64,000 nucleotides of DNA from Macrostomum lignano (lineage: Eukaryota): assembly GCA_002269645.1 (NCBI GenBank), contig NIVC01000352.1, positions 496,001 to 560,000 of the forward strand. Reading direction: 5' to 3'. Below the pieces are notes generated by a model. It saw nothing but the letters and a program-made list of their open reading frames with translations. It was not told the DNA's origin and made no database searches. A program made the translations under genes and the position numbers. Below are positions 1 to 60,097 of the stretch, piece by piece (position 1 is the stretch's first letter; every line of letters starts with the position of its first letter).

Positions 1-28254
<28,254 letters not shown>

Positions 28255-30421: not shown

Positions 30422-30492
30422 TTTGATAAACGCGCAGTCTGTTTGCATTAATTAAGCTGATCCGCCCTTCCAGTCAGCCACCAAGAGTGTCA

Positions 30493-33400
30493 ATGGAAGG
30501 CACTGGCAGCAGGCAGCAGCGACATCCAGATCAGCAGATCTATCGACCGCCGCCAATCAGTCGCAGCGACCGTGTTGGTAGCGGCAGCGGCGGCGGCGGC
30601 GGCGGCGGCGGTGGAGGCAGAGGAGGCGGCGGAGGAGGCAGTGGCAGGACGGAAGGCGCCGCCGCAAGTGCGGCAGATGCGGACGCTGTCGGCAAGGCTG
30701 CCGCGCTGTCAGCTGGTGGCGGGCGCACTTTTTATAACAAAAGCCGTCGCAAGGGCGGGCACAGCGCTGGCCAGTCTCAGCAGCAGCAGCAGCAACAGCA
30801 ACAACCGCCGCAACAGAAAAAGCAGCAGAAACAGCCCAATCCTCAAGCGCAGCAACAACCGAAGCAGCAGCAGCAGCAACAGGCAGTAAAAAAGCAGCCA
30901 TCGCCGCAAGATCCGCAGCTTCAGGCTGGCAATACTGCTGGCGAAGGCGGGGGCGGAGGCAGGGGCGGAAGCGGGGGCGGAGGTCGGAGAAGAAACCGGC
31001 GCAGCGGAAATAAGCTGCAAAAGCAGCAACAGCAACAGCCGCATCAGAAGAAGCAGTTTCAAACAGTTGGCGATGCCGATGCGGTTGTCGAATTTTTTGC
31101 CGACGACGAGATGTGGGAACCGCAGGAGGCTGACCAGCATCCGCCACTGCCTCATCAGCCGCCGCCTCCGCCTCCGCCTCCGCTGCCGCAGCCGCAGCCC
31201 AGTTACAATTACCGGCCCAGGGGCGGAGGCGCCGGCGGCGGTTCAGGCAGGCGGGAGAAGCGCTGCTCCGAGTCCTCGCGCGGCGGCGGCGGTCGCGGCG
31301 GCTTCTCGGACAGCTTCTCCGAGGCCGAGTTCGACCGGGGTGAGGTGCTCCGACCGGACGCTCGTCTGTACGACCCGGCCAAGGATCCCGTGGTTGCCCT
31401 GCCGTCGCCTCGCATGCCTCAGCAGCAGCAGCAGCCGCCGCAGTCTGTGTTGAATCCAGGCCAGGACCCGATGGGCCCGCAGCATCTTCATCAACAGCCG
31501 GATGCGGAATCCGGTGCCGGTGGTCAGCTTCAACAGCAGCAGCAGCAGCCGCACACTGGCGGTCTCATTCGTTTGCCCGAGACTCTGCGGCGCGACGCCA
31601 TGCACCGAGGGCCCAAAGATGGGCGCCAGGTGAGTTAATGCTTGTACTATAGGAAAATAGTACATCTATTCAAGTTAAATTTGCTTAAAAACATTTTGAT
31701 CATTATCACCTTCTTTAAAGAAAATATAATTTGTCCATTCTTAAGTACCTAGTGGGATCAGGATTCGAACCCCCGACCTTTCGGTCGTGAGTCCGATTCT
31801 CTAACCACTAGGCTACAACCCCACAATGCCCTCACAAATCCTAAGCACAATGTAGTTGAGGATGTTGAGCACGAAAGTTAATCAGTTATAACATCGAATT
31901 ACAGAAAGTGCGTTTGTTGGATGTGCGGAAAATGTTCCACCATAGGGAACATATCTCCAACTCTCATCGATCTAGTAATAACTGATTTTTCATTGCCTCA
32001 ACAGTGATTTAGCTGTGTAAAATATCAACCATAAGCGTTAAATGAGACTTAATTAACCTGACCTGAAGAATTATAAAATTTTCAACTATGCCTTAATCAA
32101 CAAGCAACAATTAAAATGTTTTACTGACACAAACAACATGCAATGCTTGCCATAAATACAAGATCCGAAAATGTTCGGAGCTCTCAGATGCTCGGACACG
32201 AATCCGGTTTTTACTACCGCATGTTACTACGTCTGAAGAGTTTAAGAGTGGTGATCAGTCACTCAAAAACTCCCACTTCTAGACACGGGGGAACAAGTGC
32301 CTAGGTATTTATCAGTTCAAATAACTTACTTCAGCGGATCCTCTTGGGGTCGGCAGCCGGTGGAGTTCTGTGGCGCGTCGGGATAGCAAGCTTGCTGAGC
32401 GGTTACGGCGACCGGTTCCGGTGAACCACTGTTTTTCTTTGGTGTCCTTAACTTTATCTGTGGGTCGACCAAACGAGAGCGAATCAGAACTTCTTAACGG
32501 TCCTCGAGCTCGGAATTCACAATAGAACGTGCGCCCTAATGAACAATTGAATTCTCTAATTTTCTGTGATAGGTCCTCCTGAAGGGCGGCTTCTTCGTTA
32601 CGTCCGAAACGTAACGGATAACTCAATTAAATCAATAAATCCTCTAGGAATATCCTAGGAAACAAGGAGGCCTTTCTCAAATGTATCGACAATGAACTGC
32701 TCTCGTATACTCAATCAATCACTTTATTAGCGCTATTAACAATTAACTAAATCGGGTAAACGCTTACCAATTGGACAGGGATGGTCCCTCAGAGATTGGT
32801 CTTCTTATTTCTTCGGTGTCTTCTTAGAGACCGCTCCGAGTCTGAATTTTGACTTGAATTTTCACTTATATTTATAGCAAAATTTTGGAAAAAAACCGGT
32901 TTGGGATTGGGTATTTACTTAGGTCAAAAATGTTTGATTAAGCGGTCATGCATGTTTGAGCATTACCATATATGGAGTTAAACAAATACAGCTGTTGAAA
33001 TCCGGTTCCTTGATCAAACAATGTAGGGTTCTAAATCATTCTGTTTGCGCGTGATTCCTAAAATAGATATGACTCATTTTGAAAGAAATTGACTTCCTTA
33101 GAATATTACTTTAAGTAGAGCATTACGGTATGGTCTAATAACTCTCTACAATATCTCCCCTTTTCACAAAAATTCGTCCCGAATTTTAAAGTTAAAGCGG
33201 TGAAGTGGGGTTTTATCTTCTAATAAACATGAAAATGTATTTAAGGATTAGAAATTTTGAACCAGTAGTAGTATAGTAGATGGATAGGTAGATAGGTAGG
33301 TCACATTGTTATTGTGTTGCTTGGCAGGATGCATTGTTATTGTTAATAGGAAAGCGTATTATTCAGTATATCGTTTACTTTGGTTGTCAATCTCGCGAGT

Positions 33401-36400
33401 GGCCACAGTAAGTGCTGTATCGGCGTAAATTGTGTTGATTCGGTGGCGTTGAGGAATTCCAGGTAGATCTCTTCAGTTGTACTCGTAGTATTTATTGGAT
33501 GCGCCGCATATTGACGTACCAAGTCAAAAAGATATTCCAAATGGTCTCTCTTGTTGAATGGTATTGGCCATGTTCGTATAGCTGTTGCTAGTTCCTTGGC
33601 CGTCATACTGTCCATGGTCTCCTTTGTAAGTTGGATCTTTGGTAATGTTGTTGTTCCGGCGTAAATTTCCTTAGATATTGGCGCTGCACAAGTTATGCAA
33701 TGCTTATAGTCGCGGCACCGAATTTTTAGAGCACAATCTCGGCAGACCCAGTGTCCGTTGGCGCACATCCTTTGTTGCGGTGTTGTATTGCATACCTGGC
33801 ACAGGGTAGGTGGTGCGCGGCATAGCGGGCATTTGTCTATTCTATCCGTTGTGCAGCAGTTATAGCAGAACTTATGCCCATGCTGACAGTAGACATACTG
33901 TTCAGTGTCTTCATAACAAACAATGCACTCGTCGCTATCCATGTCTGAAAATGGTCAATGTGATAAGTAATATCTGTGCAAGAATGGTTGCAATATCTGT
34001 GGGTGCATGGTATTTTAATCAATTTCTGAAGCGGAACTATTATAGTCATATGATTCTTGGGGTGGTAATATATAAGACAAGTCCTCATTACGCAGAATGA
34101 GTGCAGGTAGAGCTGTACAGAGGATGGGGCATGGGTGAAAATTCATATCGTTAACAATTTTAAACAGCTTATGTTCAATTTCTTGTGGAGATAATTGCCG
34201 GAGTCTAGAACCGTAGGAAGAGGAATAGCGAACGAGGTATTTACGTGTTTTATGAGCAGCACGTGGTATGGGCCATGATCTGAGGCGGATAATTATAGCA
34301 TGTGATGGAAAAAGAGCATAAGTGAATGGGTGAAGCTGTAGGTTGTAGTCCGCTTGAATGCATGCAAGTTTGTTGTTAACTTTAGGTAAAGGGGTGGCAT
34401 CGCATATAGGACACTGACAAATGGAGCGATAAGCAAGCTTCTTAATACATTGTGTGCACATAAAATGTTGATTTAAGCAATATTGTTCAGTGCGCCAGGA
34501 GTTGCATAACATGCATTGACGGAGATTACCTCGACACATAGGGCAATTTTTTAAAGGTTTTTTGTAATATGCAAGGCTTAAGCAAGAACCACACACCTGG
34601 TGTCTATTGACACATATACAAGGTAGTTTACATGAAAATTCTCCGAGACAGATAGGACAATCCATTGTCGTGTTTGTCGTAGTTGTGTGAGCGTTTGTAG
34701 GAAAACAAGGATTTAGTCGCCTCTTACGACAAGCTTGAGGAAGCTGTAGTGCTATTCTTTATCCCGGTCACTACACGGGGACATGAAGCGAATAATTTAA
34801 CGAGGTCTTAGGTTGTACGTATGACCGACAGGTGGTGCGTTTGTTGTTTGTGTTTCGGCGTGTGCAGTGGCAATGTGTTTATTTGTTGTTTTTGTGTGGT
34901 CTGGATTTTGTAGGTCTGGGAGGAATGTAGTGTCGTTAGTGATACGTTTTAGACGTTGAATGTGAACATAGAACTGAGGTTGATGTGGATCCTGGATATT
35001 AGCGAGGCGTGCTGATACTAGAGAAGGCTTAGGTAGGTCTCGCTTATGTCGTTCTATGACATCTTTTCTCTGATAGGTTCCATTTACTACCTTCAGGAAA
35101 ACATTCTTATCCATATCCTTAAGCGCGATTGGTATTTCTTGGTCGGAGAGGATTAGTTGCTCGTCCTTGTTTTTACATTTCAAGTGTGTGTAGCTTGGTT
35201 GCTTTGGAAATGTAAGAGCCAAATCTCCTGAGTCGGCAAGGAAGGTGTTAGATAGCAGTTTCCCTTGAACAGTGTGATATTTTTGCAGCTTGCAGTCAAT
35301 TTCAGTTTTTACTTCCCATGCAGTGAAATATTTGCGGGTTCGGCTGGGCTCCTCATATCGGGAATCCGATCTATATTCAATTTGGTATCGATAGTCATGG
35401 AAATAAATCGGTGCTAGGGGTAAATTTTGAGCTTCTTCTTTGTTGTAGTTAGGGGTAGAACAATATCCAGAGCTGTAGTGACACTGGTCGAGTGGTAGCT
35501 GTAAGGATTCCATGTTGTCAAATGGATTGTGGTAGAATAAAACATTTCGGATGAGGTAGCTATTGTAGACTGAGTATGTAGGCCATCGTGATTGATGATA
35601 ATGGACATATCTTCCATCGGCTACATTTTTTGTGCGAAATAGCTGTGCTCCGCTGGCGGACGTCTCATGAAGTTTTAATTGACCATCTTCGGAAAACAGA
35701 GTTTGATTCCACCGAAGGCATTCTTCTTGTGATACCATCATCGAAGTTTGCCAATACCTGATTCGGTTCCATTGTACCAGCCAAACCTTTTCAATTTCAT
35801 CCTTGTCTCGGAAGCACACAATTCCCATTTGTCGATGCTTCTTTGTATTTGCTTTGTATATTTCAATAGTTAGTGGTAGTGGCTTGGTTTGGTTTGTCTT
35901 AAAGTAACTGCATTTGATTTCCGTAGGAATCTTGTAAATGACTGGCTGGATGTCTCCATCAGTGGGACAGATCATTGGAGATGGAGACGGCAGTACCGTG
36001 GGAACAATTGCCATCATCAAGATCGTGAGGAAGCATTGCAGTAGCGGATGTTTTTTCTTTCGTCTTGTTGGTACTGGTGGAGTGTCTTCAATCTCGTCAT
36101 GACTATCTTCAGGATACGGCGGAGGAGTAAGGCGAGTCGAAAAGTGCCATTTGTTAGAACATGGTAATGGTGTGGGTGGCTGCGATTGCAACATCGGACG
36201 CATAAAGTTGGTTGATTTTGATATATTGGTAAGATGTGTAGTTGTATTCTCATCAGTTGGAGTGTTAACCGGTTCCATTATTGTTATCGGTTCATCATAT
36301 TCGCTTTCATAGTCTAGGTTCATTGAAACATATGTGTCATCCTCCGTCTGTACGAACTTTTCATCTGTCGAATGGTTAGATTGTGTGTTCGTGGCCTTGT

Positions 36401-39400
36401 CATGTTTCCATTTTTCGTGGACTGGACTAGGGGAGACAATATTTTCATAGTCTGGTTCCTGTGTTGGAGGTGTTTCTGACAGGTCTATATCGTCGACTAG
36501 GACCTGCAACATGTCAACGCTTTCTTCAAAGATGTTTTGAGAAGTTGCTGGATCTCTGTCTTCTTCAAGTGTTGTCATTTCTTTACGATCCTGGAAATTG
36601 TCATCTCGGTGAGTTTCCGAAAGATTGTCGATCGTCGGAACTTTAAATAGATTGCTTTGTTGCTTAGAAATAGTTTGTTGTTGTCTTTTGTTTTCTCGGA
36701 AGACTGGACTTGCTTTAGAAGAGGTAGGAATGGGTGGATCTTCTTCAAACAGAGAATCCATCATGCAGCTACTTTCGCTGCTTGTGCTATCTTTTCGTTT
36801 TTCAAACTCCTCAAGGACATTGATTGTGAAATCCGGCATAAGATCCTCTATCTTAAACTCTGGTTCGATGACTTGAGTGTATTCCGGTTCAATAGCTTGA
36901 GCATATTGTCTGCGGACCTGAGTAGGCTGTCTTGGAGGAGGAGGATTTCTTTGTTGTCGATAAGGTACCAAGGCATTTCCTTGTCTATTCTGTGGTGGGT
37001 TCCAATTGCGATTTTGAGGACGAGTCCAATTTTTTCTTCTGTTGTCATTATATTGTCTTGGATTGCCACGTGATCGGCAGTCTCTGGCGTAATGACCAAT
37101 TCTTCCACAGGTGTAACAAGTGGGTGGCGGAGCGTATCTCTGTCGCTGTGGCATGATTGCAGAAGTTTGGTACTGCTGCATGAGTTTGCTCAATTGTTCT
37201 CCCAATTGTGTCGTATCACTACTACGAGAAGTCAGGAGTGGGGCACTTGCTTCCCATTGCATGCCGCAACGAATTAATTGTTCCTCTGTCTCAATGGTTT
37301 CTCTTAACAACCTGTCTCGCAGCGAAGGTTGAGCATTATTAATGACATGGAGGATTAGGCTTTGTTCTTGGTCAGCAAGGCGTTGTCTTTCTCGTGCAGC
37401 TAGTTCTGCTGGTCCGATAGGCTGAGCTCCTGGGTTCGGTGGTGGTGGCTGGTGCAACGCTTTAATAATTTTGCGGACGTCATCGACGAAAGTAAGGAAG
37501 GATTCCGTCGGACTCATTTTTCGATTATGAAGTTTGTGTAGAAGCACAGATCGATTGGTTCCACATCTGGCGAATTGTGCTCTCAGTTGTGTAACTAAAG
37601 TATGATAGTCTTGCTGTGCGGCGGCATTTAGTTTGCCATAAATTTCTCGAGCAGTACCTTCTAACAGTGGAGGAAGAAGAAGTGCCTTTTCTGGATTTTG
37701 TAGTCCGTATTCGCGAGTTACAAGGTCGAAGTGTTCAATGAAGGTGTTAAAATCTTTATCCATGGTATACATTCCAACAGTTTCCTTGACATCGCGATGC
37801 ACTGTAGGGTTTCTTCGAGCCATATTTTCAAATGGGAACGGCAAGAGGACCAGATCTGGATCAATTTCCAAAGGATTTTCCAGATTGGACTTTCAAAGTG
37901 GCGAACAAGTGTTGTGTGTGTGTGCAAGCTCTTATTTACTTAAAGGAAGAAAGAAAAATGGACACGGGGGCAAAAAAAATTCTGTGTTGCCTTTACCAAA
38001 GAAAGAAATTGAGATAGGATATTCGCAAATTTAACAAAAGTATAAAAAGGTGCACGAAGAATCAAAGGGTCTCTATGCAAACAATGGCGGTTCGGTAAAA
38101 AGTTCAGAAAAATTTGCGCAAAGGACTTGTGTCAAAGTACTTTCAGCGATCTAGCCTGGTAGCGCTTGAGCCTGGGCGAGATCACCAGTTGAAGAGTTTA
38201 AGAGTGGTGATCAGTCACTCAAAAACTCCCACTTCTAGACACGGGGGAACAAGTGCCTAGGTATTTATCAGTTCAAATAACTTACTTCAGCGGATCCTCT
38301 TGGGGTCGGCAGCCGGTGGAGTTCTGTGGCGCGTCGGGATAGCAAGCTTGCTGAGCGGTTACGGCGACCGGTTCCGGTGAACCACTGTTTTTCTTTGGTG
38401 TCCTTAACTTTATCTGTGGGTCGACCAAACGAGAGCGAATCAGAACTTCTTAACGGTCCTCGAGCTCGGAATTCACAATAGAACGTGCGCCCTAATGAAC
38501 AATTGAATTCTCTAATTTTCTGTGATAGGTCCTCCTGAAGGGCGGCTTCTTCGTTACGTCCGAAACGTAACGGATAACTCAATTAAATCAATAAATCCTC
38601 TAGGAATATCCTAGGAAACAAGGAGGCCTTTCTCAAATGTATCGACAATGAACTGCTCTCGTATACTCAATCAATCACTTTATTAGCGCTATTAACAATT
38701 AACTAAATCGGGTAAACGCTTACCAATTGGACAGGGATGGTCCCTCAGAGATTGGTCTTCTTATTTCTTCGGTGTCTTCTTAGAGACCGCTCCGAGTCTG
38801 AATTTTGACTTGAATTTTCACTTATATTTATAGCAAAATTTTGGAAAAAAACCGGTTTGGGATTGGGTATTTACTTAGGTCAAAAATGTTTGATTAAGCG
38901 GTCATGCATGTTTGAGCATTACCATATATGGAGTTAAACAAATACAGCTGTTGAAATCCGGTTCCTTGATCAAACAATGTAGGGTTCTAAATCATTCTGT
39001 TTGCGCGTGATTCCTAAAATAGATATGACTCATTTTGAAAGAAATTGACTTCCTTAGAATATTACTTTAAGTAGAGCATTACGGTATGGTCTAATAACTC
39101 TCTACACGTCCTCGAGCATGTTACCACAACAATCGCTTGCTATAAAGTCTGAGTCTGCATACCATTGTGCCACAATGAAGGTTAACGAATAATATTAACA
39201 TTGTAAGATGGCCATGTGTGACTTCAAAGGCGTCCTCCATCACATACACTTGCACCAAGATCAACTACGCAATCCGAAGATCGGCATAGTAGGAAAAATC
39301 TTCGGAGTTGTAATTGAACAAAACTATGCAGATCTCGCCAGTATAGTCCGGATCAAAAACACCTCCACCGATAAAGATGCCGCGTAGAGCTAGACTAGTT

Positions 39401-41812
39401 CGAATGCTTCGGGATTCGTAGGCTGGTATGATGCCCTCTGTAGCCGAAGATAAATCATACCCAATTGATCCGACAGTTTGACAGGTTGGAATCATCGCCA
39501 AACCAAGCACAAGCTCGACCAAAGTTTTCGATCAAATGTCGTAGACTGCTCTGTCTCTGACTAATCGGTAGATGTTGCACTTGATCCATGTCACCAATTC
39601 TTGTAGCTGAAAGTGATTTAAAAAAGTAAAAGTTTCTCCTAGAACATGAACGTCAGCAACTACATCATCTACGTCTACAAACACAAGTTTTTTTGCATTT
39701 TGAGAAAGAATACCAATATAGCTATAAAACTTACACTCTCAAAAATTGAACACAAAAAGGTACTAAAATTACATACAATTTAAATGAATGTACACCAAAT
39801 GTATGAATGAAATCGACAAGAAAAATCATCCTACTAGCATTACACACCATAAAAAATAAGTAAATAGGTTGCTTTATACAAGAGAGAGAGAGCATTTTTG
39901 CATAGTATTGTTAATCATCCAAACGCCAATGTAAAAAGGCAACGAATCTGTTGGAGTTGTCCAGGAACGCTTATTATAAAAAAAGCTCATACAAAAGCTC
40001 ATCAAAAATACTTTCTGCTTTCGAGAACGAATGCACTGCATGCGCGAAAACACAAGTTGTCGCTGGTTTAGAACTCTAAAATAAAATCAAGTAAATAAAA
40101 CTGCTTGCACCCTTGTCTTGTTAATCGGATTGGACCGGATCGGAAACACCGGAGACTAGTTTGCACCCTTGTCTTGTTAATCGGATTGGACCGGATCGGA
40201 CACACCGGAGACTAGTTTGCACCCTTGTCTTGTTAATCGGATTGGACCGGATCGGACACACCGGAGACTAGTTTGCACCCTTGTCTTGTTAATCGGATTG
40301 GACCGGATCGGACACACCGGAGACTAGTTTGCACCCTTGTCTTGTTAATCAGATTGGACCGGATCGGACACACCGGAGACTAGTTTGCACCCTTGTCTTG
40401 TTAATCGGATTGGACCGGATCGGACACACCGGAGACTAGTTTGCACCCTTGTCTTGTTAATCGGATTGGACCGGATCGGACACACCGGAGACTAGTTTGC
40501 ACCCTTGTCTTGTTAATCGGATTGGACCGGATCGGACACCGGAGACTAGTTTGCACCCTTGTCTTGTTAATCGGATTGGACCGGATCGGACACACCGGAG
40601 ACTAGTTTGCACCCTTGTCTTGTTAATCGGATTGGACCGGATCGGACACACCGGAGACTAGTTTGCACCCTTGTCTTGTTAATCAGATTGGACCGGATCG
40701 GACACACCGGAGACTAGTTTGCACCCTTGTCTTGTTAATCGGATTGGACCGGATCGGACACACCGGAGACTAGTTTGCACCCTTGTCTTGTTAATCGGAT
40801 TGGACCGGATCGGACACACCGGAGACTATTTTGCACCCTTGTCTTGTTAATCGGATTGGACCGGATCGGACACACCGGAGACTAGTTTGCACCCTTGTCT
40901 TGTTAATCGGATTGGACCGGATCGGACACACCGGAGACTAGTTTGCACCCTTGTCTTGTTAATCGGATTGGACCGGATCGGACACACCGGAGACTAGTTT
41001 GCACCCTTGTCTTGTTAATCGGATTGGACCGGATCGGACACACCGGAGACTAGTTTGCACCCTTGTCTTGTTAATCGGATTGGACCGGATCGGAAACACC
41101 GGAGACTAGTTTGCACCCTTGTCTTGTTAATCGGATTGGACCGGATCGGACACACCGGAGACTAGTTTGCACCCTTGTCTTGTTAATCGGATTGGACCGG
41201 ATCGGACACACCGGAGACTAGTTTGCACCCTTGTCTTGTTAATCGGATTGGACCGGATCGGACACACCGGAGACTAGTTTGCACCCTTGTCTTGTTAATC
41301 GGATTGGACCGGATCGGACACACCGGAGACTAGTTTGCACCCTTGTCTTGTTAATCGGATTGGACCGGATCGGACACACCGGAGACTAGTTTGCACCCTT
41401 GTCTTGTTAATCGGATTGGACCGGATCGGATTCGATACTTGGATACTTGGACATTTCAATGCTTGGATGTTAAATTACGCAATTTTGTTTTAAAAGAGCT
41501 GCCAAAATATTTGTAAACTGGCTAATTTTATTAACTTGTGTAAAAATCGTGTTTGTATCGAATTGAAATATAATACTGCTTTAAAAGAAGTTAATTTGAA
41601 TGCGTAAAGTTATACGCAAATATCAGGTTTATATGTCTGAAGTGGTGTGTCTAATTAAGCCACTATTCATTTCGTAAAACTAAGTCTGCGTGCACATGGA
41701 ATTTCAGACTTTGCCATTTTTCTGGGCCTGTACTTGCTATGTATTTCACCATAAGGAAATCGGGTTGTGTCATATTTTCCTATACTAATTATGCTGACTA
41801 AAGTTCTTTTCG

Positions 41813-41861
<49 letters not shown>

Positions 41862-44800
41862 GTCTGTCTGTCTGTCATTGCTATCGGCCACCCCTTCCGC
41901 ACACGCCCAGGTCCCCATAGTGGTAGTGCGGCCACAGTCGCATCACGCGCAGCCGCAGCCGGCCATGCAGTCAGAGGAGTCCCAAGCCGCAGCCGAGCAC
42001 ATTGAGCAGGTTTGCCAGCTGGACTCCGAGCTGGATAGGCTGGTCCAGCAGTGGGCTCCCAGCATGGACCCGCAGGTGTGGTGGGGCCTGGTCCAACGCC
42101 CCCGGCTCGACCTGCTGCACAGGTGCGCCGACGCCCTGCGGGCAGGTGCCGGCTGGCAGGAATCGAACTCAGGCCCGCAGCCGGCCCTAGACCAGAGAAT
42201 GTGGCGCTCAGGGTTTCACGCAATTGTTGAACAGCTACGCCAGATGTCCGGGCCGGATCAGCCGGAGCGACTGGCCGAGCGTGGCCGGGAACTGGCGCTG
42301 GACATGATCGAGTCTGGCTGGCAATTTCTGCAACAACTTGCTGACCAGTTGGCCGCCGAGCACGAACTGCCGGTTGAGCTGCCGCTCCGCATCGGCTTCC
42401 TGCCGCCTGCGGTGAGGTGCACCCGCTGGCAGCGGCTCGGCCTGCTGCTCATCCAGCGGCTCTACCTCAACATTGGTGATTTGCTCCGCTACAGAGAGGT
42501 CTTCTCCGGTGGCGCCGACTATAGCGAAGCTAGAAGGTGAGCTGGGTGCTCCTGTGAATTATTCTACGAAATAGATGTATTTTAGTTTGAAAGTAAAATC
42601 GTTGAGTTCATTTTTCTAAGATTTCTTTTTCAGTTTTTTGAGTGTTAGTGTAAAAGATTCTTAGAATGAATTATCGTACGAGTGTTTCTAAGCAATGAAT
42701 TGTTATCATGAGAATGTTTCTAAGAAATATCGTCTGGAAATGTTTCTAAGAAATATCGTATGGAAATGTTTCTAAGAAATATCGTATGGAAATGTTTCTA
42801 AGAAATATGGTATGGAAATGTTTCTAAGAAATATCGTCTGGAAATGTTTCTAAGAAATATCGTCTGGAAATGTTTCTAAGAAATATCGAATGGAAATGTT
42901 TCTAAGAAATATGGCATGGAAATGTTTCTAAGAAATATCGAATGGAAATGTTTCTAAGAAATATCGAATGGAAATGTTTCTAAGAAATATGGTATGGAAA
43001 TGTTTCTACAAAATATTTATTATCGTAGGAATGTTTTTAAAAAGTATTAAAAAATCTTAGAAATGTTTCTAAGCCAATTTTGTGAGTGTCCCTTGGCAAC
43101 ACTCAGGTGAATGATTCAAGGTAATCCCATATACTAATCCCATATACTAAGAATTGATTCTAGAAATGATTATTTCTCTTCCCTCTTCAACCCTCTTCAA
43201 CTTACCCAGCTGGTACTTGAAGGCTGTGGCGCTGGAGCCCAAGAATGGTCGGACCTACCATCAGCTGGCTGTGCTGGCTAATGCAACAGTGAGTTTTCTT
43301 TAATTCATTGACTCTTTTTGAGTTCCAATTAGATGACTTTCCATGAGATCAATCAATCCGACTTTGAATCTTCTTTATGTTAAGAATTTTCATCCGCTAA
43401 TCAATAATCGCTTCGCTTGAAAGAGTAGCGGAACTGCCCTGTCCCTGAGAGGAATTAAGTTTTCATCTTAAGAATTTTCATGCCTGAACTATCACCTCAC
43501 CTGAAAAATCGCCCCACCTGAAGCACCGCCCTACCTGAAGAACTCCCTCCCCTACCTGAAGAATCGCCCACCTGAAGAACCACCCCTACCTGAAGAGCCG
43601 CCCCACCTGAAGAACCGCTCCACCTGAAGAACTGCCCCACCTAAAGAACCGCCCCACCTGAAGAACCGCCCCACCTGAAGAACCGCCCCAACTGAAGCAC
43701 CGCCTCATCTGAAGCACCGCCCTACCTAAAGAACTCCCTCCCCTACCCGAAGAACCGCCCCACCTGAAGAACCGCTCCACCTGAAGCACCACCCCACCTG
43801 AAGAACCGCCCCACCTGAAGAACCGCCCCACCTGAAGCACCGCCCCACCTGAAGAACCGCCCCACCTGAAGAACCGCCCCACCTGAAGAACCGCCCCACC
43901 TGAAGAACCGCCCCTACCTGAAGAACCGCCCCACCTGAAGAACCGCCCCACCTGAAGCACCGCCCCACCTGAAGAACCGCCCCACCTGAAGCACCGCCCC
44001 ACCTGAAGCACCGCCCCACCTGAAGCACCGCCCCACCTGAAGAACCGCCCCACCTGAAGCACCGCCCCACCTGAAGCACCGCCCCACCTGAAGAACCCCC
44101 GCCGCCGCCCCGGCAGAAGCGCCGGCTAGACGCGGTGTACTACTACATGCGGTCGCTGGCCGCCAGCCACCCGGTGGACCTGTCCCGCCAGTACCTGGCC
44201 CAGCTATTTGAAGAGGCCAGACGCCGCGCCGAGGCGGCCTGGCGGCAGAGAGAAGCGGAGCGCAGCAAGCGTCAGCGGGCGAAGAACGCCGGCTCTTCCG
44301 GGCCGTCGCTCAGCAGCGGCGGCCTCCGGGCGCTTCAACAGCCGAACCGGCGCTGCCGCGTCGAAGTCTGGGTGCCGGTGTCCGGCGCCGGCCGCCAGCT
44401 CAGCTCCGGCCTGCTCAACTCTGACGAAGAGGACGTCGAACAAGAGGAGGACCTGGACCAGCTGTCCTTCATTGAGATCAACACGGCATTCACGGCCAGC
44501 TACCTGCACTGCCACGGCAAGCTGTTCACCCGCATCGGCATGGAGAGCTTCCAGGAGGCCTGCTCGCAGACTCTGCTTGAGCTGGCAGCCTGGCTGCGCC
44601 ACGAGCCGCCGGCTGAGCGGCTACTTCAACTGGCGGCCGGCTGCGTGTTCTCCGCCAGCTGGGCCGCCCGCCAGGGACCGCCAGGAGCGGCCCAGTACAG
44701 ATCTGTGCAGTTGGAGAGCGCCGTTCGGCTGGCGCTGGACTTTGCCGCCGTGCTGGCTAGGCACTGCCGGCACCTGCTGGCTGTGAGTTTGCACCGGGTT

Positions 44801-47871: not shown

Positions 47872-48048
47872 CTGCTTGCGATGTTTATGAAGCATTCGTT
47901 TCGCGATTCCTGCACTGTCTTCAATTCCTACGAGTAATTTAATAAATGCTCTGGTCCTTTTGCTCTTGCTGCCTTCCTTACTTCATTGGCCGCCTTCTAG
48001 AAGCAGCACCATTGACCTTTGTTTTGCTTTTAATGTAGACCGATATTT

Positions 48049-50056
48049 ACGCTACATATCGGCAATCCACCAATCCTGGTACATAAGAATTAGATAACTA
48101 CGCTACATATCGGCAATCCACCAATCCTGGTACATAAGAATTAGATAACTACGCTACATATCGGCAATCCACTAATCCTGGTACATAAGAATTAGATAAC
48201 TACGCTACATATCGGCAATCCACCAATCCTGGTACATAAGAATTAGATAACTACGCTACATATCGGCAATCCACTAATCCTGGTACATAAGAATTAGATA
48301 ACTACGCTACATATCGGCAATCCACCAATCCTGGTACATACGAATTAGATAGCTACGCTACATATCGGCAATCCACCAATCCTGGTACATAAGAATTAGA
48401 TAACTACGCTACATATCGGCAATCCACCAATCCTGGTACATACGAATTAGATAGCTACGCTACATATCGGCAATCCACCAATCCTGGTACATAAGAATTA
48501 GATAACTACGCTACATATCGGCAATCCACTAATCCTGGTACATAAGAATTAGATAACTACGCTACATATCGGCAATCCACCAATCCTGGTACATAAGAAT
48601 TAGATAACTACGCTACATATCGGCAATCCACCAATCCTGGTACATACGAATTAGATAGCTACGCTACATATCGGCAATCCACCAATCCTGGTACATAAGA
48701 ATTAGATAACTACGCTACATATCGGCAATCCACCAATCCTGGTACATAAGAATTAGATAACTACGCTACATATCGGCAATCCACCAATCCTGGTACATAC
48801 GAATTAGATAGCTACGCTACATATCGGCAATCCACCAATCCTGGTACATAAGAATTAGATAACTACGCTACATATCGGCAATCCACCAATCCTGGTACAT
48901 AAGAATTAGATAACTACGCTACATATCGGCAATCCACCAATCCTGGTACATACGAATTAGATAGCTACGCTACATATCGGCAATCCACCAATCCTGGTAC
49001 ATAAGAATTAGATAACTACGCTACATATCGGCAATCCACTAATCCTGGTACATAAGAATTAGATAACTACGCTACATATCGGCAATCCACCAATCCTGGT
49101 ACATAAGAATTAGATAACTACGCTACATATCGGCAATCCACCAATCCTGGTACATACGAATTAGATAGCTACGCTACATATCGGCAATCCACCAATCCTG
49201 GTACATAAGAATTAGATAACTACGCTACATATCGGCAATCCACCAATCCTGGTACATAAGAATTAGATAACTACGCTACATATCGGCAATCCACCAATCC
49301 TGGTACATACGAATTAGATAGCTACGCTACATATCGGCAATCCACCAATCCTGGTACATAAGAATTAGATAACTACGCTACATATCGGCAATCCACCAAT
49401 CCTGGTACATAAGAATTAGATAACTACGCTACATATCGGCAATCCACCAATCCTGGTACATAAGAATTAGATAACTACGCTACATATCGGCAATCCACCA
49501 ATCCTGGTACATACGAATTAGATAGCTACGCTACATATCGGCAATCCACCAATCCTGGTACATAAGAATTAGATAACTACGCTACATATCGGCAATCCAC
49601 TAATCCTGGTACATAAGAATTAGATAACTACGCTACATATCGGCAATCCACCAATCCTGGTACATAAGAATTAGATAACTACGCTACATATCGGCAATCC
49701 ACTAATCCTGGTACATAAGAATTAGATAACTACGCTACATATCGGCAATCCACCAATCCTGGTACATAAGAATTAGATAACTACGCTACATATCGGCAAT
49801 CCACCAATCCTGGTACATACGAATTAGATAGCTACGCTACATATCGGCAATCCACCAATCCTGGTACATAAGAATTAGATAACTACGCTACATATCGGCA
49901 ATCCACCAATCCTGGTACATACGAATTAGATAGCTACGCTACATATCGGCAATCTACCAATCCTGGTACATAAGAATTAGATAACTACGCTACATATCGG
50001 CAATCCACCAATCCTGGTACATAAGAATTAGATAACTACGCTACATATCGGCAATG
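48049..50056 (+). repeat. 51-bp intergenic satellite (ACGCTACATATCGGCAATCCACCAATCCTGGTACATAAGAATTAGATAACT), ~39 copies
   Basis: Period 51, with three recurring variant units. Confidence 0.96.
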
Positions 50057-50804: not shown

Positions 50805-53842
<3,038 letters not shown>

Positions 53843-56376: not shown

Positions 56377-59300
56377 ATGATAAAACGCCAAATCAATTTA
56401 GTTAGACTGGCGGCGGCACTAATTGAGCTATTATTAATATCGACGGTCTCTTTGATGTCTGCCACCGACGCCGCGACTTGCGTTGAGTGCCCGGCTGGCC
56501 GAGTGTGGAATCCTAACGAACCTGGCTGCACCAAATGTCCCCAGGGTCGCTGCACAGATGTCGGCCAGTGCGCCCGGTGTCCGCCTGGCACTAGCCAGGC
56601 CAAGCCTGGACAGAGGGACTGTCAGCCCTGTCCGGTGGGCATGCACCAGCCTGCGTCCGGCCAGGCCGGCTGCACAGCCTGTCCAGCAGGCGAGGAGGCG
56701 CCCAGCAGAGGCGCCATTAACTGTACCGAATGCCGGCCGGGTTTCAACAAATCCGAGTCCGGCGCACAGCTGTGCGGCGCCTGTCCGGCCGGGAGCTACT
56801 CGGACGAGTTGGCCAGTTTAGAGTGCCAAGTAAAATTGAGGACTGGTGGAAGAAGAATCGTATAGGGGAGAAATGGGAACAGTAGGGGGAGTAGTTGTAG
56901 TAGTAGGGGGAGAATGGGGAACCGTAGGGGAGAATGGGGAACCGCAGGGGAGAATGGGGAACCGTAGGGGGAGAATGGGGAACCGTAGGGGAGAATGGGG
57001 AACCGTAGGGGGAGAATGGGGAACCGTAGGGGGAGAATGGGGAACCGTAGGGGGAGAATGGGGAACCGTAGGGGGAGAATGGGGAACCGTAGGGGAGAAT
57101 GGGAACCGTAGGGGAGAATGGGGAGCCGTAGGGGGAGAATGGGGAACCGTAGGGGAGAATGGGGAACCGTAGGGGGAGAATGGGGAACCGCAGGGGAGAA
57201 TGGGGAACCGTAGGGGGAGAATGGGGAACCGTAGGGGAGAATGGGAACCGTAGGGGGAGAATGGGGAACCGTAGGGGGAGAATGGGGAACCGTAGGGGGA
57301 GAATGGGGAACCGCAGGGGAGAATGGGGAACCGTAGGGGAGAATGGGGAACCGTAGGGGAGAATGGGAACCGTAGGGGAGAATGGGGAACCGTAGGGGGA
57401 GAATGGGGAACCGTAGGGGAGAATGGGAACCGTAGGGGGAGAATGGGGAACCGTAGGGGAGAATGGGAACCGTAGGGGAGAATGGGGAACCGTAGGGGGA
57501 GAATGGGGAACCGTAGGGGAGAATGGGAACCGTAGGGGGAGAATGGGGAACCGTAGGGGGAGAATGGGAACCGTAGGGGGAGAATGGGTAACCGTAGGGG
57601 GAGAATGGGGAACCGTAGGGGAGAATGTCGAACCGTAGGGGGAGAATGGGGAACCGTAGGGGAGAATGGGGAACCGTAGGGGAGAATGGGAACCGTAGGG
57701 GGAGAATGGGGAACCGTAGGGGAGAATGGGGAACCGTAGGGGGAGAATGGGGAACCGTAGGGGAGAATGGGGAACCGTAGGGGGAGAATGGGGAACCGCA
57801 GGGGAGAATGGGGAACCGTAGGGGGAGAATGGGGAACCGTAGGGGAGAATGGGAACCGTAGGGGGAGAATGGGGAACCGTAGGGGGAGAATGGGGAACCG
57901 TAGGGGGAGAATGGGGAACCGCAGGGGAGAATGGGGAACCGTAGGTGAGAATGGGGAACCGTAGGGGAGAATGGGAACCGTAGGGGAGAATGGGGAACCG
58001 TAGGGGGAGAATGGGGAACCGTAGGGGAGAATGGGAACCGTAGGGGGAGAATGGGGAACCGTAGGGGAGAATGGGAACCGTAGGGGAGAATGGGGAACCG
58101 TAGGGGGAGAATGGGGAACCGTAGGGGAGAATGGGAACCGTAGGGGGAGAATGGGGAACCGTAGGGGGAGAATGGGGAACCGCAGGGGAGAATGGGGAAC
58201 CGTAGAGGAGAATGGGGAACCGTAGGGGAGAATGGGAACCGTAGGGGAGAATGGGGAACCGTAGGGGAGAATGGGGAACCGTAGGGGAGAATGGGAACCG
58301 TAGGGGGAGAATGGGGAACCGTAGGGGAGAATGGGAACCGTAGGGGAGAATGGGGAACCGTAGGGGGAGAATGGGTAACCGTAGGGGGAGAATGGGGAAC
58401 CGTAGGGGGAGAATGGGGAACCGTAGGGGAGAATGGGGAACCGTAGGGGGAGAATGGGGAACCGTAGGGGAGAATGGGGAACCGTAGGGGGAGAATGGGG
58501 AACCGTAGGGGAGAATGGGGAACCGTAGGGGGAGAATGGGGAACCGCAGGGGAGAATGGGGAACCGTAGGGGAGAATGGGGAACCGTAGGGGAGAATGGG
58601 AACCGTAGGGGAGAATGGGGAACCGTAGGGGGAGAATGGGAACCGTAGGGGGAGAATGGGGAACCGTAGGGGAGAATGGGGAACCGTAGGGGGAGAATGG
58701 GGAACCGTAGGGGAGAATGTCGAACCGTAGGGGGAGAATGGGGAACCGTAGGGGAGAATGGGGAACCGTAGGGGAGAATGGGAACCGTAGGGGGAGAATG
58801 GGGAACCGTAGGGGAGAATGGGGAACCGTAGGGGGAGAATGGGGAACCGTAGGGGAGAATGGGGAACCGTAGGCGAGAATGGGAACCGTAGGGGGAGAAT
58901 GGGAACCGTAGGGGAGAGTGTCGAACCGTAGGGGAGAATGGGGAACAAACAGTGGGGGAGAATGGGGAACCGTGGGGGAGAATGGGGAACCGTAGGGGAG
59001 AATGGGGAACCGTAGGGGAGAATGGGGAACCGTAGGGGAGAATGGGAACCGTAGGGGGAGAATGGGAACCGTAGGGGGAGAATGGGGAACCGTTGGGGAG
59101 AATGGGAAACCGTAGGCGAGAATGGGAACCGTAGGGGGAGAATGGGAACCGTAGGGGAGAGTGTCGAACCGTAGGGGAGAATGGGGAACAAACAGTGGGG
59201 GAGAAGGGGAACCGTTGGGAAGAAACTGATACATAAGATACATAGAATGAAGGGAAAACTATAGGTGCTTTAATGGGGCTGACAATATCGGGCAGGGGTA

Positions 59301-60097
59301 CGCTTGTCCCACATTCAGATTACTTTCCTTACAAGCGATTGCAATAGTTCATATTGGGTATAAGGCAGGAGCAACTAACTGTAACATAGGTTAGTCTCAT
59401 GCCTCGTCGTCTAATTAGCGCTCTTGAAAAACTTCCACAGCTCTGCCCATCAGGCCAGTTCAGCCACACGGCGGGTCAGTCGGCCTGCCAGCCCTGTCCG
59501 GCGGGCACCTTCGCTAACTGGACCGGCGCCAGCGCCTGTGTGGTCTGCCCAGCCGGGCGGGATCAGAAACACGAAGGCGGCCTTGACTGCCAGGCCTGCA
59601 GGCGCGGCTTCTACAAAGCCTACCCGGCTGTAGACGACTGCAAGCTGTGCCAGCCCGGCTATTACAATCGGGCCGAGGGCTCCCTGGGCTGCCTGGCCTG
59701 CCCGGCCGGCTACTACTGTCCCCGGCCCTGGGTGGACCCCGAGTCCTGTCCGGCCCTGTCCGTGTGTCCGGCAGGCAGCTACGAGCCAATTCAGTGCCGC
59801 GGTCCTTTCCTGGCCGCTGACAAGTCCAGCAACGCCTGCCAGGCGACCGCCAGTCTGTACGCGGTGCTGTCCGCCTCCGCTATCGTCTCCGTCATTGTCG
59901 GCCTCGCCGTTGCCGGCTACGTGCGCGCTTGGCGCCGGCGCCGGCGCCGTAGAGCCGGTCTTGTCGATGCTAGCGGCGCGGGTGCCGCCGATTTTTCCGA
60001 CTCAATGACTGCGGCGGCGGCGTCGGCAACGGCCGGCAATGAGCGGATGCCGCTGATTAAAGGCGGAGATGGCGGGCCGGTGTACTCCGGTCTGTGA
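56377..60097 (+). CDS. Type I membrane protein with Cys-rich CxxCPxGxY (ephrin-receptor-like / GCC2-GCC3 / TNFR-like) repeats, 369 aa
   Basis: Exons 56377-56829 and 59441-60097 in frame. N-terminal hydrophobic signal (LAAALIELLLISTVSLMSA), repeated C..CP.G motifs, TM LYAVLSASAIVSVIVGLAVAGYV followed by an RRRRRRR stop-transfer, short tail ending VYSGL. Confidence 0.88.
56862..59220 (+). repeat. ~20-21-bp G-rich minisatellite (GGGGAACCGTAGGGGGAGAAT), >100 copies
   Basis: Fills the single intron of the Cys-rich gene; source of two 815-aa pseudo-ORFs. Confidence 0.96.

Follow-up and report, generated by a model that had tools for sequence, protein, structure and literature searches.

The window (the whole stretch of DNA analysed, 64,000 nucleotides) contained an LTR element of 6,873 bp on the minus strand, at positions 32234-39106. 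Its ends, flanks and priming sites were located as follows:

39107-39110, minus strand: target-site duplication GACG in the flank sequence, upstream copy
38190-39106, minus strand: 5' LTR, 917 bp, TG...CA, with 0 differences from the 3' LTR
38176-38187, minus strand: candidate primer-binding site (PBS) TGGTGATCTCGC, 12 nt, starting 2 nt past the 5' LTR
33154-33165, minus strand: polypurine tract (PPT), identified from sequence, preceding the 3' LTR
32234-33150, minus strand: 3' LTR, 917 bp
32230-32233, minus strand: target-site duplication GACG in the flank sequence, downstream copy

The hallmarks of Ty3/gypsy LTR elements were all present, namely TG...CA ends, a PBS, a PPT and a short target-site duplication. 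The candidate PBS had 164 matches in the element's own genome (G000) versus 12 for the reversed control, and a tRNA search gave at least 19 matches (63 of 61,948 candidates scored). The element seemed to lie antisense within an intron of an SMG6/EST1-like host gene on the plus strand (30430-31638 and 41755-42540). The EST1 match on the downstream side of this gene was weak and below the cut-off (E 0.0039), and its upstream Q/G-rich frame carried motifs that may resemble exon-junction-complex-binding motifs. A dUTPase remnant (39265-39531, minus strand; PF00692, E 1.9e-12) was found just outside the 5' LTR; it did not belong to the element and may derive from an older element at the target site. 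Long minisatellite arrays (17283-20300, 40100-40500, 47940-50000, 52885-53400 and 56744-59319), with units of 22, 24, 51, 8 and 20-21 bp, and one more array were the source of many long frames in the window.

Inside the element, ORF1 was open from the Met codon at 37823 to the stop codon at 34797, and was divided into the following parts:

34797-37823, minus strand: ORF1, 1008 aa, in the order Gag, spacer, signal-like segment, Env N-terminal part, integrase tail
37014-37823, minus strand: Gag, about aa 1-270, with a CCHC knuckle at 37077-37118
36069-37013, minus strand: acidic, Ser/Thr-rich, fast-evolving spacer (D+E 0.20 in aa 331-585; dN/dS 0.40)
35988-36065, minus strand: internal segment predicted from sequence to be signal-like, basic RRKKK and then a hydrophobic core
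35040-35987, minus strand: retained N-terminal part of a gB-type class III Env (PH-like modules), 8 Cys, from fold comparison and alignment, ending in a furin-type RHKR
35005-35012, minus strand: deletion junction, GCACG exact (5 bp) and 7 of 8 bases in all, from comparison with the long copy G000:C717
34797-35004, minus strand: integrase C-terminal tail (end of the GPY/F module, VHxxRLK, YNLRPR), matching the last 70 codons of the long ORF with 0 differences

A Pfam scan of ORF1 gave the CCHC knuckle of Gag as its sole match (PF00098, E 6.8e-07, above the cut-off). Neither the Env part that was kept nor the 69-aa tail, scanned by itself, gave a match, and both were therefore identified through a long relative of the element. 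The 69-aa tail also gave no significant alignment with the nematode protein P0059. The capsid part of Gag was a putative assignment from its position and its conservation among relatives.

The sequence-only reading had described an Env-like ectodomain, fused to Gag and followed by an integrase-like peptide, from eight named peptide features. All eight were recovered by translation at the described places, within one open frame, downstream of a hydrophobic stretch:

35988-36044, minus strand: hydrophobic stretch, aa 594-612, the only region of ORF1 above 1.0 in 19-residue Kyte-Doolittle windows
35964-35978, minus strand: PMICP
35910-35939, minus strand: IYKIPTEIKC
35814-35873, minus strand: LTIEIY...GIVC
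35709-35735, minus strand: VSQEECLRW
35460-35486, minus strand: QCHYSSGYC
35040-35051, minus strand: RHKR, furin-type
34947-34973, minus strand: FYVHIQRLK
34800-34823, minus strand: HTYNLRPR

No second hydrophobic stretch was detected in these windows, in agreement with the proposed lack of a transmembrane anchor. The furin site was present as described, but the break had been placed at that site, and the join was found about 10 residues beyond it. A hydrophobic segment ahead of the ectodomain was seen in 8 of the 9 own-genome frames examined, and the ninth was without the motif searched. Since the ectodomain, searched against the own genome, had at least 127 matches (203 candidates, 126 scored), this part of ORF1 was not a chance frame.

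A long relative, G000:C717 in the same genome, was 99.2% identical to the window element over the left 4,102 nt and 99.7% identical over the right 2,779 nt. Its ORF was a single frame of 2,503 aa in the order Gag-Env-protease-RT-RNase H-integrase, with these features:

aa 258-273: CCHC knuckle
aa 617-635: hydrophobic segment
aa 948: furin site
aa 965-1092: weak match to PF24664
aa 1218-1236: membrane anchor (hydrophobic)
aa 1333-1421: protease
aa 1658-1817: RT
aa 1882-2014: RNase H
aa 2109-2281: integrase

Compared to C717, the window copy lacked 4,416 bp, a multiple of three. At the protein level both sides of the junction read A-R-L, 10 to 12 residues past RHKR. The last 70 codons of ORF1 showed 0 differences from the end of the long ORF. 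In the long ORF, 84 aa separate the GPF motif, positioned immediately upstream of the join, from the C-terminus, and 56 aa separate VHxxRLK from it. On both counts, the tail of ORF1 is the integrase end. The proposal of one in-frame deletion joining Env to the integrase tail was thus borne out, with a microhomology at 35005-35012. The long relative contained GAG, ENV and POL in that order, whereas the window copy, having lost 4,416 bp, did not contain all three in full.

A mosaic tract was observed in the Env part at about 35090-35410 of the window (about 3700-4016 of the element), where the window copy differed from C717 in patches and was closer to the copy C262. The left part of ORF1 differed from C717 in 20 codons, 17 of which lay in aa 806-911, mostly as synonymous changes. 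The donor of this tract was not found among the own-genome copies compared. Coupling of the deletion to an intermolecular template switch was considered and found unsupported, since the informative site 4041 was of the C717 type and the mosaic tract stopped before the junction.

The domain order of C717 was found in each of the five long own-genome ORFs scanned, which were picked to span 98% to 27% Env identity. The single-ORF gag-env-pol parent that the sequence-only reading had proposed was therefore recovered, as were full-length relatives with Env between Gag and Pol, and no gag-pol-env order was met among them. The Pol order of C717 (PR-RT-RH-IN) was that of Ty3/gypsy, and the best solved relatives of the RT of the long relative were Ty3 RT chains (E 2e-67), with retroviral RTs behind. 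A profile search of 1.84 billion proteins gave 373 hits at E up to 0.001. Among the best 150 of these, 21 had RT in the same chain, and Env was ahead of RT in 21 of 21; the named ones among 10 hits looked up were from Macrostomum lignano, Meloidogyne and Globodera. A parent with the usual gag-pol-env order, in which the tail would belong to Env, was given almost no credence. Nothing was found in its favour, the tail was the end of the integrase region in the long ORF, and the RT-bearing chains all argued for the opposite order. In the distant gag-env-pol family at L037:3431-9901 (G000:C247; 27% in Env), a Thr-rich, mucin-like insert of roughly 200 aa was observed before the furin site.

The fold of Env was modelled on the Env of the long copy with a 6-row alignment, and the model was of modest quality (pLDDT 56.6, pTM 0.33). 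In a Foldseek comparison with the PDB, the best match was herpesvirus gB (E 1.2e-15), and all matches listed were gB. Against viral models, the best match was a Nyavirus glycoprotein (E 5.2e-20), with rhabdo-like, chuvirus-like and gB proteins also matched. TM-scores of the model to gB were low (0.2-0.3). A VIA-align comparison also placed gB first (Z 9.0, rmsd 33.7, 359 aligned), and model residues 30-307, the PH-like range that the window copy keeps, matched PH domains and rabies G (Z 5.4). As modelled, the Env of the long relative is of the class III, gB fold and lies between the hydrophobic segment and the anchor, in line with the class III reading made from cysteine spacing. Nematode ERVs described by Sacco and colleagues reportedly have a continuous gag-env-pro-pol ORF with an Env like that of Nyamiviridae, and here too the top viral fold match was a Nyavirus glycoprotein. 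The family in the window differs from those ERVs in host group, going by the nearest named hits, and in its accessory ORFs, which here encode two RING proteins. A Globodera protein of 2,517 aa was collinear with the long form (28% in Pol, 22% in part of Env).

The window copy was without the long helix (model residues 328-373), the later strands and the anchor of this Env. It kept 8 of the 12 Cys that were invariant in the Env alignment and lost the other 4. Isolated gB domain IV matched the model from residues 4 to 580 (Z 8.7, rmsd 4.2, 154 aligned), and because this match spans both ends, the N-terminus of Env is predicted to pack against the part that is missing. By comparison with gB, the first two Cys of the stump would be left unpaired. 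In the long copies, Env was under purifying selection, with dN/dS values of 0.14 and 0.07 versus C583, and of 0.06 and 0.05 versus C391, at which dS was above 1. The dN/dS of Gag between long copies was 0.06. Values versus the 64% sister family were not usable in that dS was saturated.

In internally deleted, non-autonomous LTR retrotransposons, as in defective-interfering-like genomes, the LTRs, PBS and PPT remain, Pol has been removed at short repeats, and copying depends on an autonomous element. The window copy was of this type, in that Pol was absent and the short form was present at five independent sites with target-site duplications; compared to the generic case, it retained an open frame of 1008 aa containing Gag and half of Env. 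This frame is kept in the short form because Env sits inside the same ORF. The junction was spanned by 6 of 40 own-genome matches, and 5 of these were complete copies. The five had different flanks, each had its own 4-bp duplication, and their LTR pairs differed at 0, 0, 1, 2 and 0 of 917 positions. The sixth match (C2828) ran off its contig and had its 3' flank in common with C301, which makes one of the six junction matches a duplicate or an allele and could suggest that the short copies stem from one broken locus by assembly collapse or segmental duplication. We consider this very unlikely, in view of the different flanks and separate duplications of the other five and of contigs from public runs in which both the joined and the long forms were seen at 35012. 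Nor did the copies represent a single fixed host locus that is no longer mobile, since five young insertions with near-identical LTRs were found. The presence of the short form at five separate sites without a Pol of its own, next to a 99% identical long relative in the same genome, suggests that it was copied in trans by the Pol of another element.

Two other deletion forms were found. In the second form, 6,579 bp were removed in frame at a 9-bp repeat; it was present at one site and lacked both Env and the zinc knuckle. The third was a Gag-only form of 3,215 bp, joined at a 7-bp repeat, with an ORF of 268 aa, a stop codon 209 nt before the 3' LTR and no Env. It occurred at three sites with their own duplications (L063, L064 and L065, in G000:C3022, C1130 and C70), and its junction was also present in contigs of 2 of the 4 runs examined. 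The form with the Env stump was thus the commonest deletion form found (5 sites versus 3 and 1). Partial copies that looked truncated or interrupted were left out of the deletion forms (C538, C1950, C1205, C255, C2129, C5158, C1319, C59, C283, C2038 and a second C1130 site).

The two deletions that terminate within ORF1 were both in frame (4,416 and 6,579 bp), and all three forms kept the Gag start. In-frame deletions could have been selected because the natural stop is kept and the RNA is spared nonsense-mediated decay, or because Gag is made in cis, with the stump itself neutral. The Gag-only form, with its stop so near the 3' LTR, would fit this as well. However, of the 2,606 pairs of 7-mer repeats that the long ORF offers, 39% were in frame, and two of two would arise by chance with a probability of about 0.15. 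The 6,579-bp form, moreover, was without the zinc knuckle and was found once. By the repeat-pair count, such selection was indistinguishable from chance, and we regard it as a minority reading.

Soluble truncated Envs of vertebrate ERVs, such as Refrex-1 and FeLIX, consist of a signal and an N-terminal Env part without an anchor; they are class I receptor-binding domains at fixed loci. The window stump likewise combined a signal-like segment with an N-terminal Env part and no anchor, and the sequence-only reading had offered a receptor-interference factor as its possible role. By this account, the anchorless Env fragment, or Gag, would act against the long form or related viruses, either by blocking a receptor in soluble form or as a dominant-negative partner, and the short form would be favoured. 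ORF1 was open in 5 of 5 complete copies, the Env part had no variable site, the form occupied more sites than the other deletion forms, and its junction was found in a contig of one run. However, an open frame is expected in any case since the LTR pairs of these young copies differ at only 0-2 of 917 sites. Of the 4 sites at which ORF1 varied across the five copies, 3 were nonsynonymous and 1 was synonymous, with 3.6:1 expected under neutrality. There was no sign of selection on the Env stump, and 4 variable sites among 5 copies are too few to show or exclude it. An Env-less form had spread too, the copies bore the hallmarks of mobile elements rather than of a fixed host gene, and the central helix and four invariant Cys were gone, as were the parts against which the stump would pack. 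The stump also differs from Refrex-1 and FeLIX in being of class III and in being carried by a young mobile element. We found the receptor-interference role unsupported and consider interference improbable. Its fullest version, a mobile, defective-interfering-like element that encodes Gag, a secreted class III Env fragment and a spliced RING gene, and in which the fragment dampens the long form to the advantage of the short one, is in our judgement similarly improbable; if true, soluble Env restriction factors would have a class III counterpart in an invertebrate, observed at its origin.

Taken together, the window copy very probably arose by deletion from a single-ORF Ty3/gypsy element of gag-env-pol order and gB-type Env, and is a recent, non-autonomous insertion. 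With the same confidence, we regard the Env stump as a passenger whose retention reflects the position of the break, a side effect of the deletion and not a new defence gene. In the long form, one polyprotein would be threaded through the ER membrane, with Gag cytosolic, Env directed to the ER lumen by the basic and hydrophobic internal segment, and Pol cytosolic again after the anchor; signal peptidase, furin and the element's own protease would then cut it. The deletion may have originated from a template switch of reverse transcriptase or from microhomology-mediated repair. The short RNA would be packaged by Gag, and reverse-transcribed and integrated by the Pol of long relatives. In the short form, domains I-II and an 80-aa tail would enter the ER through the same signal, without an anchor or a folding partner there, and this luminal stump, unable to anchor, trimerise or fuse, would most likely be degraded or released as an inert fragment.

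Past the integrase end, the element carried two accessory ORFs, and an intron was found inside its LTR:

34015-34665, minus strand: accessory ORF A, 216 aa, tandem RING-like Cys/His clusters; weak Pfam match (E 0.96), Cys/His pattern common to ORF B and relatives
33343-33942, minus strand: accessory ORF B, 199 aa, tandem RING; PF13920, E 7.2e-08, above the cut-off
38414-38723, minus strand: GT-AG intron inside the LTR, 310 nt; joint in 3 of 4 runs (X6, X10 and X13), absent from X17

ORFs A and B (33343-34665) were paralogous and were retained by sister families as distant as the 64% family; a different ORF was found at the RING position in the 27% family member C1189. Their products are putative E3 ligases, judging from the Cys/His clusters. 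No report of paired RING ORFs, or of non-autonomous forms of such elements, was found in the freely accessible literature searched. Transcript evidence was drawn from contigs of 4 of the 24 listed public runs, none of which is recorded as RNA, and gives neither level nor strand. The GT-AG joints of X6, X10 and X13 suggest that these runs are RNA, with DNA admixture possible. A further GT-AG joint connected 38286 to 33944, 2 bases before the ATG of ORF B, in 1 of the 4 runs (X6), which suggests that ORF B has a spliced message from an LTR donor. One contig of X6, of 2,320 nt, crossed the deletion junction with 0 differences; junction-bearing RNA thus probably exists, and the Env-stump fragment may be made. 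The sole AATAAA of the LTR (38684, minus strand) was located inside the 310-nt intron, about 40 nt past the splice donor, and could bear on avoidance of polyadenylation in the 5' LTR.

The sequence-only reading had called the gag-env-pol order of the parent unusual; the order is, however, already described. Chary and Hayashi (eLife 2026; PMC13524379) report "ancient errantiviruses" of Nematoda, Bryozoa and Platyhelminthes with ENV of the HSV/gB type only and in the order GAG-ENV-POL, and credit Sacco et al. 2022 (J Gen Virol 103:1739) for nematode ERVs with flipped ENV and POL. The family in the window resembles these errantiviruses, as that paper describes them (e.g. Platyhelminthes_Rhabditophora_Mlig_errantivirus_2), in its Ty3/gypsy Pol, a gB-type Env between Gag and Pol, and LTRs, whereas the window copy is without Pol and half of Env. 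The reverse complement of the window PBS was the same 12 nt as the PBS listed there for Mlig_errantivirus_2, and the nearest named proteins of the family were from Macrostomum lignano. The same PBS was common also to a 63-65% identical sister family, so that a match to the listed PBS does not equate the family with Mlig_errantivirus_2. The terms "non-autonomous", "RING", "single ORF" and "polyprotein" do not occur in the main text of PMC13524379.

The window copy is a defective member of this published GAG-ENV-POL kind, whose gene order is already known. What our results add is a young family resolved in one genome, with long single-frame copies, three deletion forms that each have their own microhomology, and a RING gene reached by splicing. 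Less ordinary is the pair of RING ORFs, which sister families have retained. The young family provides a natural set for the study of ER threading of a Gag-Env-Pol polyprotein and of the competition of defective forms with their helper.
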